Source of the DNA: a virus
Taxonomy: Duplodnaviria > Heunggongvirae > Uroviricota > Caudoviricetes
Virus record (IMG/VR): IMGVR_UViG_2531839619_000023
Strand: one strand, 5' to 3'
DNA: 40,950 nt
Part shown: positions 30,872 through 32,787 of the stretch, piece after piece
Position numbering within the stretch: position 1 is the stretch's first letter
Layout of the letters: each line of letters begins with the position of its first letter
Position numbers and translations under genes: made by a program
The notes under the pieces: generated by a model
The model's database searches: none
What the model was told of the DNA's origin: nothing
What the model saw: the letters and a program-made list of their open reading frames with translations, nothing else

Positions 30872-31782
30872 TGTTTCATGTTGATAATAATTCCGGCGTG
30901 GCGAATATGCCTGCGCTGGCACCGGCGCAGAGTAATACCACCACCTGGTTTACCGAAGGTGACGGACAAAAAGGTATCAGCTGGATTGGTCAGGACTGGC
31001 TGAATATTCTCCAGGCCGAACTGCTGAATATTCTGGCTGAAGCCAGTATTCAGCCGGATAAGGCGCAGTTAAACCAGCTTACGCTGTCCATTAAAGCCAT
31101 TATCGCTGCGAATGCCTTTTCCCGGAAAAACAACCTGAAAGAAATTGCTGATGCCGGTGCGGAAGCCCAGCGTCTTGCCCGTGGTTATCTTGGTCTTGGG
31201 GCGCTTGCCACAAAAAACAGTCTTGGTCCCGGTGACGTTAATGCTCTGGCGAAGGATCAGAACCTTGCCGACCTGGAGAATGCGGGAACCGCCCGTAATA
31301 ATCTGGATGTTTACAGCAAAAGCGAAGGTGATAACCGTTACCTGCGCAGGGAGCAGAACGGCGCAGACATTCCGGATAAAGGCGCTTTTATCGATAACGT
31401 CGGTTTACGGGAAACGGTAAATAAGGCTGCTGATGCCCTGCCATCGGGTGGAACCGCCGTGGCAGCAAACAGACTCGCCACCCCAAGAAATATTAATGGC
31501 GTTCCTTTTGACGGAACGCAGGATATCAACATCACGTCAGGAATGACGCAGTCAACCGCAGATGGCCGGTATGTACAGAATGTTCAGCTTGGAGCACAGA
31601 GCTATCATTCACCCGGAGGCAATGAAATATCATGGAATTACAGCGCACCTTCCGGTTGTATGCTTTCCGGTATTAACGTGCAGGAAACCGGCTCCCGGTC
31701 TGCGGACAATATCGGTGGGGTCTATTATCGCCCGGTTCAGATTTATATTAATAATGCCTGGAGAACGGTAAGTTCAGTGTAA
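30871..31782 (+). CDS. Tail fibre protein: constant N-terminal part fused to the variable C-terminus currently in the expressed orientation
   Basis: N-terminus MFHVDNNSGVANMPALAPAQSNTTTWFTEGDGQKGISWIGQDWLNILQAE is typical of Mu/P2-type fibres. The gix-like crossover lies inside the gene near 31399, and the C-terminus ends YYRPVQIYINNAWRTVSSV. Confidence 0.85.
   Translation: MFHVDNNSGVANMPALAPAQSNTTTWFTEGDGQKGISWIGQDWLNILQAELLNILAEASIQPDKAQLNQLTLSIKAIIAANAFSRKNNLKEIADAGAEAQRLARGYLGLGALATKNSLGPGDVNALAKDQNLADLENAGTARNNLDVYSKSEGDNRYLRREQNGADIPDKGAFIDNVGLRETVNKAADALPSGGTAVAANRLATPRNINGVPFDGTQDINITSGMTQSTADGRYVQNVQLGAQSYHSPGGNEISWNYSAPSGCMLSGINVQETGSRSADNIGGVYYRPVQIYINNAWRTVSSV
31391..31414. repeat. 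Left gix-like inversion crossover site, inside the tail fibre gene
   Basis: TCGATAACG TC GGTTTACGGGAA is inverted with respect to the right site; the shared core GGTTTACGGGA encodes GLRE/D in both fibre variants. Confidence 0.7.
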
Positions 31783-32776
31783 ACCACAGAAAAGGGTGCT
31801 GAATGCACCCTCTGAATTATTCCGGTTTTTCCGGCCAGGGAATCGCCTGGTAATGCCCCTCACTGGCAATATCATTAAAGTGCATTTCTTTAAGCTGTCG
31901 GATATACGCCATCCAGCGCGTCAGCTGTAATTTATTTTCATCGCTAATCATGTCCAGTTTTAATTCCGTTTTCCAGTCATCCACAGTTTCGTTGGCTTCC
32001 TGGAGCAGCGATGAGCGGCGCTTTTCAGCAACCGTCTTCCAGTTTACCGGCACCTTTGATATCAGGCCATCAGAAAACTGCCAGTTACCGTCAATATTCA
32101 CACCTTCCGGCAGTTCGTCCACTTCAACAACAGTAAAACCTGCCGGATATAAAGCAGAGACATCTTCAGCAACAGAGCAGATAATACCCGTTACAGGCGA
32201 AATACAGAGTTTGTATTTCTTTGTGAAAAGCGGGATAGATTCATAAAAATCCCTTCCGTCCTCACTCTGGAAATACTGAACATCCTCACCATAGGGTTTG
32301 TGTTCCGGGTAATATCGTTTTACGTTAATAAGCTCCATTATTTCACCTTGTTTTTGTTGAAAAGACAAAATCATCATATATTTATTCAGATAATCTGTTT
32401 TTTGAACTACTGCACTTTTATGCGCTGGAAGCTGTTTTCCACGAACCATCTATCAGAAACTGAACAGGTCGATAATATGCGGTTACCGTTGCATTACCAT
32501 CACCAGCGACATCAAGCCCTGTAAGTACGCATCCGTCAGGAACCTCAAAAATATTATATTGCATTCCAATCGTTGACCTTGAACCTCTTCGAATGCTTTG
32601 AACATAACGTGAGTCAGCCACAGACTGCGTCATCCCCGATGTAATATTTATATCCTGCGTTCCGTCAAATGGGACACCATTAATATTTCTTGGAGTGGCG
32701 AGTTTATTCGCTGCAACAGCCGCTCCGTTCGATGGCAGGGCATTCGCGGCCCTGTTTACAGTATCCCGTAAACCGA
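31400..32776. other. Gin-invertible segment (Mu G-segment analogue, about 1.4 kb) carrying two alternative fibre C-termini and one fibre assembly gene
   Basis: Bounded by the inverted gix-like sites at about 31399 and 32775; the Gin recombinase gene is adjacent. Confidence 0.75.
31817..32338 (-). CDS. Tail fibre assembly protein (Tfa), oriented for co-expression with the alternative fibre tip after inversion
   Basis: The ATG at 32338 (minus strand) with AAGGTGAAATAATG gives MELINVKRYYPEHKPYG, a typical Tfa N-terminus, 173 aa. Confidence 0.8.
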   Translation of the reverse strand: MELINVKRYYPEHKPYGEDVQYFQSEDGRDFYESIPLFTKKYKLCISPVTGIICSVAEDVSALYPAGFTVVEVDELPEGVNIDGNWQFSDGLISKVPVNWKTVAEKRRSSLLQEANETVDDWKTELKLDMISDENKLQLTRWMAYIRQLKEMHFNDIASEGHYQAIPWPEKPE

Positions 32777-32780
32777 GGTT
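32418..32780 (-). CDS. Alternative tail fibre C-terminal segment (promoterless and start-less in this orientation)
   Basis: Minus-strand frame open from the right gix site; translation NLGLRDTVNRAANALPSNGAAVAANKLATPRNINGVPFDGTQDINITSGMTQSVADSRYVQS parallels the plus-strand fibre (VGLRETVNKAADALPSGGTAVAANRLATPRNINGVPFDGTQDINITSGMTQSTADGRYVQN), then diverges in the last 60-70 residues. Confidence 0.7.
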   Translation of the reverse strand, partial: NLGLRDTVNRAANALPSNGAAVAANKLATPRNINGVPFDGTQDINITSGMTQSVADSRYVQSIRRGSRSTIGMQYNIFEVPDGCVLTGLDVAGDGNATVTAYYRPVQFLIDGSWKTASSA

Positions 32781-32787
32781 TCAGGGA
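32762..32787. repeat. Right gix-like inversion crossover site
   Basis: TATCCCGTAAACC GA GGTTTCAGGGA is an imperfect 26-bp palindrome resembling Mu gix (TTCCTGTAAACCGAGGTTTTGGATAA) and hix sites. Confidence 0.75.

Follow-up and report, generated by a model that had tools for sequence, protein, structure and literature searches.

Programmed variation of host range is classically illustrated by inversion switches of the G type, whose accepted design provides each alternative fibre tip with a chaperone of its own. In the C segment of P1 and the P segment of e14, for example, a tail-fibre assembly gene (tfa) stands directly after each alternative tip. PMC9608196 describes the Caudo_TAP protein as composed of two domains, with a conserved C-domain that drives trimerization, and reports, citing North 2019, that Mu-type Tfa uses its N-domain to bind the fibre tip and remains on the virion. 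Here we describe a fibre switch with a single tfa in a stretch of viral DNA of 40,950 nucleotides (nt) (IMG/VR record IMGVR_UViG_2531839619_000023; the whole stretch is called the window hereafter), which is a Mu-family transposable prophage by gene content and matches Escherichia coli O157:H7 chromosomes at 99.8%. On the basis of its Mu-like nature and its O157:H7 host, the element probably corresponds to Sp18 of strain Sakai. The locus is an intact, conserved and flipping Gin/gix host-range switch of the G type, in which one Tfa is combined with two homologous tips and the tip without a following tfa is functional. As for the way in which two tips are provided for by one chaperone gene, we tentatively favor, with a probability of roughly 0.45, a single generalist Tfa that is transcribed autonomously and serves both.

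The invertible segment and its two fibre tips

The fibre gene of the window (open reading frame [ORF] 30871-31782, plus strand, 303 residues) is immediately preceded by a baseplate J gene and a gene of the Mu gp48 family, and the protein is related to the Mu fibre S (Protein Data Bank [PDB] entry 5YVQ_A; E=1.3e-48 for the whole protein), with its residues 1-198 matching residues 1-191 of S (3e-43). Two gix-like sites, of which one falls within the fibre gene and the second a short way upstream of gin, are inverted relative to each other and have identical cores, GA being the reverse complement of TC. Both are very close to gixL and gixR of Mu and are kept in six related loci, and the half-site GGTTTACGGGA agrees with the Mu half-site GGTTTACAGGA at 10 of 11 positions. 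A repeat search places both sites inside an inverted repeat of 182 nt whose arms are 79% complementary. The invertase encoded next to the segment is about 75% identical to Mu Gin in tblastn, has the catalytic domain and helix-turn-helix (HTH) part that define the Gin/Hin/Cin/Pin family, and carries a serine motif, YIRVSTNDQ, that aligns with YVRVSTNDQ of Mu Gin; the first 260 nt of its gene, the part in which genes of this family would have their Fis-dependent recombinational enhancer (sis), give a gapless alignment to Mu gin in which many positions agree. Inversion in silico of the DNA between the two cores converts the 303-residue fibre into one of 295 residues, in frame and with residues 1-177 identical. 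The gix-like inverted repeats bracket two alternative fibre C-termini, just as a preliminary description of this DNA had proposed.

We refer to the tip without a following tfa as tip N and to the tfa-linked tip as tip T. Tip N is the one expressed at present; the reading frame of tip T, which is silent, runs into a stop codon immediately beyond the right gix site. Each tip has a match in the C-terminal end of Mu S in PDB 5YVQ (for tip T, residues 436-504 of chain A at E=2.6e-6). The earlier estimate that they share about 40 residues was too low, because the common part extends over about 52-60 residues, with 88% identity over the first 52, but the divergence noted beyond it was seen correctly; even there the tips can be aligned to their ends through the motifs G..L.G, YYRPVQ and W.T.SS.

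To follow the segment in nature, complete E. coli genomes were searched with the window sequence as it is and with its in-silico inverted version. The window orientation was found in 182 genomes at a coverage of at least 80% (141 records with a best-place identity of at least 99%), and the inverted orientation in 23 (14 such records); the inverted version was matched end to end, in one ungapped piece, with up to 99.8% identity. The O157:H7 strains Z1815 and 2-6-2 hold the segment in opposite orientations and encode identical Tfa, Gin and DUF6645 proteins. Because both orientations occur in near-identical strains, inversion at the exact predicted crossover proceeds on the time-scale of strain divergence, and the comparison of assemblies of different strains indicates that the segment does invert. 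The preliminary description had made its proposal depend on the existence of inverted copies, and by the proxy of such assemblies they are present in at least 14 complete E. coli genomes at 99% identity or more, O157:H7 included. The orientation in which no tfa follows the expressed tip is in excess, by about 9:1 (about 89%) in the complete E. coli genomes, and tfa is antisense to the fibre gene in 12 and sense in 4 of 16 Sp18-type viral contigs. This excess could be due to shared ancestry, to a biased inversion equilibrium or to selection in lysogens.

Table 1. Coordinates of the parts of the fibre switch in the 40,950-nt window
Feature	Coordinates	Strand	Remarks
Constant 5′ fibre part (Sc, about 176 codons)	30871..31399	+	Outside the invertible segment; matches Mu fibre S
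Left gix crossover site	31390..31413		Core TC at 31400-31401; TTATCGATAACG / TC / GGTTTACGGGAA
Inverted repeat, left arm	31396..31577		Encodes about 60 residues common to both tips
Invertible segment	31400..32776		1,377 bp core to core; frame kept on in-silico inversion
Tip N, now expressed	31402..31782	+	126 codons and stop; no tfa after it
Central hairpin between convergent tip N and tfa	31791..31813		Terminator scan; folding -14.7 / -14.3 kcal/mol
tfa, tail-fibre assembly gene, 173 residues	31817..32338	-	Sole copy in the window; Caudo_TAP
Spacer from tip T stop to tfa ATG, 79 nt, non-coding	32339..32417	-	25-30% GC, regional minimum
Tip T, silent alternative	32418..32774	-	118 codons and stop; joined to the constant part only after inversion
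Inverted repeat, right arm	32599..32780		Partner of the left arm
Right gix crossover site	32764..32787		Core GA at 32775-32776; TCCCGTAAACC / GA / GGTTTCAGGGA
Gin-family serine DNA invertase, 186 residues	32843..33403	+	Pfam Resolvase 1.4e-51, HTH_7 1.7e-14

The two arms of the inverted repeat were also compared where they encode the sequence DINITSG. There the arm on the tfa side (32640-32665, GATATAAATATTACATCGGGG) has several synonymous A/T changes relative to the other arm (31511-31536, GATATCAACATCACGTCAGGA), which leave an AT-rich patch after a TTGACG hexamer. The patch might be a weak inward promoter or mere drift.

One tfa gene and its relation to the two tips

The assignment of the lone tfa is firm, since its product matches the Pfam family Caudo_TAP (PF02413) at E=1.9e-18 (67 bits against a cut-off of 22) and PHROG 136 at 1.1e-57, and its residues 17-147 match Mu U (PDB 5YVQ_B) at E=2.3e-15. 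Queries with the window Tfa, Mu U and Mu U′ in tblastn found no second tfa in the window, and Pfam and PHROG scans of selected neighbouring ORFs gave no Tfa-like match besides tfa itself. After inversion, its ATG lies 79 nt downstream of the stop codon of the 295-residue fibre, behind a good Shine-Dalgarno sequence. In the present orientation, unlike in Mu, the expressed fibre has no chaperone gene downstream, and only the hairpin and the 3′ end of the convergent tfa lie beyond its stop at 31782. On these points the preliminary description was right: it had recognized a single tfa, on the minus strand, that comes to follow a fibre gene only on inversion, and the second copy elsewhere in the prophage that would have spoken against it was looked for over the whole window by tblastn and not found.

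The same layout is conserved well beyond the window. Four diverged E. coli relatives with nucleotide identities of 82-91% have the order fibre, one tfa, alternative tip, invertase and DUF6645 gene, and both orientations are seen among them. Viral contigs were fetched with the fibre N-terminus; among them, exactly one tfa is present in all 16 Sp18-type loci that are complete in the sense of including the invertase, against two in Mu-type loci. An assembly gene for each tip, such as U and U′, is therefore found neither in the window nor in any of these 16 contigs. A scan of genome contigs gave a single locus, and the taxonomic breadth of the layout is under-sampled. A second one-tfa lineage consists of Citrobacter braakii ATCC 51113 (L012, 5001-8871) and the viral contig L051. 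In its sisters, the contigs L048 and L053, both tfa genes are present and closely coupled to their tips, which suggests that one tfa has been lost repeatedly. Judged from these sequences, the one-tfa state is a designed state rather than an accident.

Neither tip appears to be idle. Across six E. coli loci, tip N occurs in two related types, N1 and N2, with the common motif VQ[ED]xG..[ST]ADN[IV]GGVY[YF]RP, and N1 and N2 modules have been exchanged among lineages; tip T occurs in four types whose mutual identity is only 31-47%, and the N tips are 30-46% identical to the T tips. The ratio of nonsynonymous to synonymous substitution rates (dN/dS) is low on both tips and amounts, in the divergent part of tip N, to 0.05-0.14 at a synonymous divergence (dS) of 0.6-1.3. 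Tip N is under strong purifying selection and is therefore a working protein end, not a relic.

The relatives of tip N were examined for chaperone genes. The tip is a member of the P2-H/Mu-S tip family; it is 55-65% identical to those of the P2-like H and Rac-SA53 tail1 fibres, and 50-65% identical when phAPEC8 gp091 and the short tail fibre (STF) of phiTE are included. In seven fibre genes with N-like tips from six phages (P2-like, Rac-SA53, phAPEC8, phiTE, vB_YpM_41 with two fibre genes, and pPE4), a tfa that is annotated or confirmed by homology begins 0-5 nt past the fibre stop, and in phage 19-1-2 an unannotated ORF of 194 residues begins 17 nt past the stop of such a gene. No extra C-terminal domain that could be an intramolecular chaperone was found on tip N. 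PDB 9CUY, the short tail fibre of phiTE, has an N-like tip by sequence, and the tip part is unmodelled in that structure. We had considered that tip N might belong to an intrinsically chaperone-free class, and rejected this because the six phages pair it with tfa, as does the Citrobacter lineage. In the one-tfa segment of the latter, tfa (229 residues) follows an N1-like tip and the expressed fibre of 472 residues has none; because an N1-like tip is linked to tfa there and a different tip goes without it, no tip class is consistently chaperone-free.

The chaperone in its turn seems to be little specialized for the tip to which it is linked. The tips Tb, Tc and Td (31-47% mutual identity) are paired with Tfas that are 82-93% identical in the fibre-binding N-domain, although the T tips differ as much from one another as from N, and Tfa thus shows no co-variation with the tip to which it is linked. 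Beyond the Sp18 group, it is most closely related to Rac-SA53 tail2 (53% identity overall and 65-69% in the N-domain) and to the Tfas of the viral contigs L089, L090 and L093 (56-58%), and the genes for all of these abut or overlap the preceding fibre gene. The fibres of Rac-SA53, L090 and L093 have N1-like tips that are 60-63% identical to tip N, whereas the identity is only 42% for the tip of L089. In view of the lack of co-variation between Tfa and tip, the N1-like partners of most of the nearest relatives and the binding of Mu-type Tfa to the fibre tip, the lone Tfa is probably capable of acting on tip N.

Expression of tfa and the readings compared

The distance between a tip and its tfa sets the one-tfa segments apart. 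From the tip stop to the tfa ATG it is 51-109 nt in all 18 one-tfa loci, in contrast to 1-15 nt in eight of nine G segments with two tfa genes. Pairs of fibre and tfa outside invertible segments, where checked, are also tight, at about -26 to +17 nt. A Caudo_TAP gene is expected to abut the fibre 3′ end directly, so that the two genes are co-transcribed and coupled in translation, and in the window 79 nt intervene. The window spacer, which with 25% GC is the regional minimum, contains a Shine-Dalgarno-like AAGGTGA and a -10-like TATGAT at 32373-32378. The one-tfa spacers belong to four unrelated sequence types, and in all four a TATAAT-like hexamer that agrees at five or more of six positions (TATGAT, TATTAT, AATAAT or TATAAT) ends 34-35 nt before the ATG. 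In composition-matched shuffles, the chance of any shared 2-nt position of the hexamer is P about 3-7e-5, and none of 16 distinct control tfa-upstream sequences (15 of them from two-tfa loci) has such a hexamer at that position. The window spacer is accordingly presented here as a candidate for an autonomous promoter and leader of tfa. Scoring of the 300 nt upstream of tfa with a position weight matrix (PWM) for promoters gave 8.7-11.2 in the one-tfa loci and a median of about 6.9 in 15 controls, a difference that is suggestive only and is partly explained by the lower GC content. Folding of the spacer RNA gave no structure above shuffles (z=0.23). The central hairpin has its U-tract on the minus strand only and looks like an intrinsic terminator for tfa; as a feature discriminating one-tfa segments it was rejected, because Mu and other two-tfa segments have a hairpin at the same central position.

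The Gin-family invertase recombines the two gix sites, and the 1,377-bp flip swaps the last 125 or so fibre residues for an alternative, homologous receptor-binding tip. In the mechanism that we propose, the segment would have given up one chaperone gene of the pair found in Mu, and the remaining Tfa would be a generalist for this tip fold. tfa might form an autonomous cistron with its own ribosome-binding site, an AT-rich leader of 51-120 nt and its own terminator hairpin, and be transcribed from a weak or activator-dependent promoter located either within the spacer or near the 3′ end of the tip T sequence. Through this transcription of its own, Tfa would be available whichever way the segment lies and would assist the folding of either tip; in the window orientation, transcription of the fibre gene and that of tfa would converge, both stopping at the central hairpin. 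We lean to an own promoter and a shared chaperone because tfa adjoins homologous tips elsewhere, because Tfa and tip do not co-vary, and because the spacer that uncouples tfa from its tip has a -10-like hexamer at a set position.

Several observations weigh against this proposal. A consensus scan found no full sigma-70 promoter upstream of the window tfa, and no recognizable -35 element accompanies the -10-like hexamers, which moreover sit in AT-rich DNA and keep a fixed distance from the ATG, something that a promoter does not require. The PWM scores are not significant against shuffles of the same sequences at any locus (p 0.14-0.7), and the four spacer types are drawn from just two prophage lineages. 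The late-promoter-like 14-mer CCGCAAARCCYGCC, described below, is absent upstream of tfa in the sense direction, and convergence with the late fibre transcript would be costly. Among the individual matches, the consensus scan gave two 9-of-12 sites exactly in the Citrobacter spacer, with a count not above chance, and the best sigma-70-like match upstream of the window tfa is TTCAAG-19 nt-TATAAT at 32553-32583 on the minus strand, about 215 nt before the ATG; this match falls within the codons of the silent tip, and shuffles of matched composition give it no significance. Two other candidate motifs were discarded: a copy of CCGCAAARCCYGCC with two mismatches inside the segment (32131-32144) is antisense to tfa and probably due to chance, and the Mu C-protein site motif CCATAACCCC shows no meaningful enrichment and is absent from the segment.

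The absence of a convincing tfa promoter is at the same time an argument for another possibility, which is also the plain reading of the gene order, namely that tip N folds without Tfa, and that production of Tfa is confined to the inverted state, in which it would fold tip T and perhaps remain there, as in Mu, as a part of the receptor-binding tip. Inversion would then toggle not only the tip but also the presence of a chaperone cap. About 89% of the assemblies are in the orientation without a tfa behind the expressed tip, the purifying selection on tip N means that this state is used, and Sakai releases Mu-like particles from Sp18, which is spontaneously induced and efficiently packaged (PMC2669165). 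Yet tfa directly follows a homologous tip in six other phages, with the unannotated ORF in a seventh, and it is an N1-like tip that is linked to tfa in the Citrobacter segment. Nor does tip N possess an additional domain that might serve as a chaperone within its own chain, and the long spacer between tip and tfa, which is seen only in one-tfa segments, would be left without an explanation. We consider this possibility unlikely, although it deserves to be kept in mind ahead of those that follow. Slightly less credence still is given to the general notion that the switch toggles between a naked and a chaperone-capped tip, such that the fibre of one state is made without Tfa, either as a natural Mu/P2-type tip that folds unassisted or as a fibre lacking a Mu-like Tfa cap; this we regard as doubtful. 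The preliminary description had offered a choice between an orientation that is independent of the chaperone and a separate promoter for tfa. The Citrobacter arrangement weakens the idea of a chaperone-free kind of tip, and our tentative preference goes to a putative promoter of tfa itself with a Tfa shared by both tips.

A further possibility is that Tfa is supplied in trans, either by genome copies that flip in the same cell during lytic replication or by co-resident prophages, and that where such a supply fails the tip-N state yields poorly infectious particles with few fibres and amounts to a partial off state. O157 genomes contain many lambdoid tfa genes, the gin gene is undamaged, and strains that are nearly identical can still differ in orientation. 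Since the plus strand lacks a U-tract behind the hairpin that follows tip N, late transcripts could read on into gin in the window orientation. According to PMC2669165, Sp18 has not been shown to be infectious. Against a supply in trans, the purifying selection on tip N and the exchange of N1 and N2 modules argue for a productive tip-N state, inversion of the Mu G segment has been reported to be infrequent in lysogens and during lytic growth alike (PMC10434027), and dependence on other prophages would fail across the many host backgrounds that carry the element. We judge it improbable, and more so than the preceding alternatives.

That the locus is a decaying remnant, which lost one tfa by deletion and whose switch no longer matters to the phage, is very hard to maintain: the two-tfa sisters in the Citrobacter-type lineage make such a loss plausible as an origin and O157 prophages are often defective (PMC2669165), but the layout persists in loci with nucleotide identities of 82-99% and in every one of the 16 complete viral contigs, all parts are intact with low dN/dS on both tips, inversion is ongoing, Sp18 is spontaneously induced and packaged (PMC2669165), and a close relative has transposed into Stx phages.

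The Sp18-type element and related systems

The remainder of the window is consistent with its assignment to the Mu family and includes genes for GemA, a Mor/C-family activator, lysozyme, protease I and Mom. It matches at 94% a "Bacteriophage Mu-like phage" inserted in two Shiga toxin (Stx) phages. The records LC727895.1 (L001) and LC727881.1 annotate an Sp18-like Mu phage, which over the switch has 94% identity, inside Stx1a- and Stx2c-converting phages with a short target duplication. Relatives of the Sp18-type element are, by these annotated insertions, actively transposing.

Some differences from Mu were seen in the regulatory part of the element. The Mor/C-family activator (9107-9532), which lies directly upstream of the lysozyme gene, is the sole one among the ORFs scanned between GemA and the lysis genes, whereas Mu has both Mor and C at that position. 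The 14-mer CCGCAAARCCYGCC has exact copies only upstream of lys (9537-9550) and of protease I (17465-17478), and a copy with three mismatches lies at 26707-26720, inside the N-like gene and about 370 nt ahead of the P-like gene. These positions mirror those of Plys, PI and PP in Mu, and the 14-mer is a candidate operator of late promoters.

Downstream of gin, the plus strand encodes a protein of 679 residues (33503-35542) with a sialate-O-acetylesterase-like (SASA) domain and DUF6645, placed between gin and com/mom. The DUF6645 gene follows the invertase directly in all Sp18-type relatives, and Mu has nothing at this place. Its product belongs to PHROG 143, which has no assigned function, shows a weak match to a tail protein family, and could be a surface-glycan-modifying enzyme of accessory or cargo type. 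Between this gene and com/mom (35689-36655) there are plus-strand ORFs of 60 and 81 residues (PHROG 494 and 311) and a minus-strand ORF of 154 residues (PHROG 26524). The Mom homolog (36924-37661) is preceded by a small Com-like ORF with a CxxC...CxxC pattern (about 36700-36925) and by a GATC-rich palindrome (TCGATCGTTTTTGTCGATCGA), reminiscent of the mom promoter of Mu that is controlled by Dam and OxyR. The region at 37755-40571, which encodes a DUF4132 protein, is probably host DNA past the right end of the prophage.

The locus itself is already known in outline, and the literature searched makes no mention of the one-tfa design, its conservation, the spacer rule or the relationships between Tfas and tips. 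The finding is a modest variation on a well-known system. If the reading with a shared chaperone is true, a Tfa of this family would be broad enough for tips that are only 30-45% identical, its expression would be separable from the transcription of the fibre, and gene order alone would be insufficient to tell which fibres need a chaperone. A broad Tfa would also be useful for engineering the host range of phages and tailocins, an undertaking that is often limited by the need for a matching chaperone. The element is present in E. coli O157:H7, as Sp18, and in many other E. coli, and because Sp18 undergoes spontaneous induction and packaging, and Stx phages have received a relative by transposition, the host range of the element bears on gene flow among pathogenic E. 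coli.

The Mu G segment is the closest described counterpart of the switch. In both phages the segment is preceded by the baseplate genes gp47 and gp48 and followed by gin and mom, the constant part of the fibre lies outside it and two in-frame variable parts lie inside, the gix sites are near-identical, the Gin proteins are about 75% identical, a central hairpin separates the convergent halves, and both tips of the window have the fold of the Mu S tip. The window segment is, however, shorter (1.4 kb against 3 kb in Mu), as is its fibre (303 or 295 residues against 504), it has one tfa instead of U and U′ in the order S-U/U′-S′, the gap between fibre and tfa is 79 nt instead of 2 nt, and its inverted repeat reaches 182 nt into coding sequence. 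The window Tfa is a two-domain Caudo_TAP chaperone like that of Mu (gp50/U, PDB 5YVQ), but the two N-domains share only about 30% identity.

A recombinase of the same Gin/Cin/Pin/Hin family inverts alternative 3′ ends of fibre genes in the C segment of P1 with Cin, in the P segment of e14 with Pin and in the Yersinia phage vB_YpM_41. The last of these has an N-like tip in its silent half, with tfa 2-3 nt after each alternative tip. The H-G pair of P2 and the tail1-tail2 pair of Rac-SA53 resemble the window in sequence, with tip N 55-65% identical to the H and tail1 tips and the window Tfa 53% identical to tail2. Those pairs are non-invertible and co-oriented, with tfa 2-3 nt past the fibre stop, whereas the N-like tip and tfa of the window are convergent. 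The segment of Citrobacter braakii L012/L051 is an independent, Gin-flanked case with one tfa and shares the spaced arrangement, with a spacer of 69 nt and a TATAAT that ends 35 nt before the ATG; it differs from the window segment in that tfa is linked to the N1-like tip and encodes a Tfa of 229 residues with a different C-terminal part.

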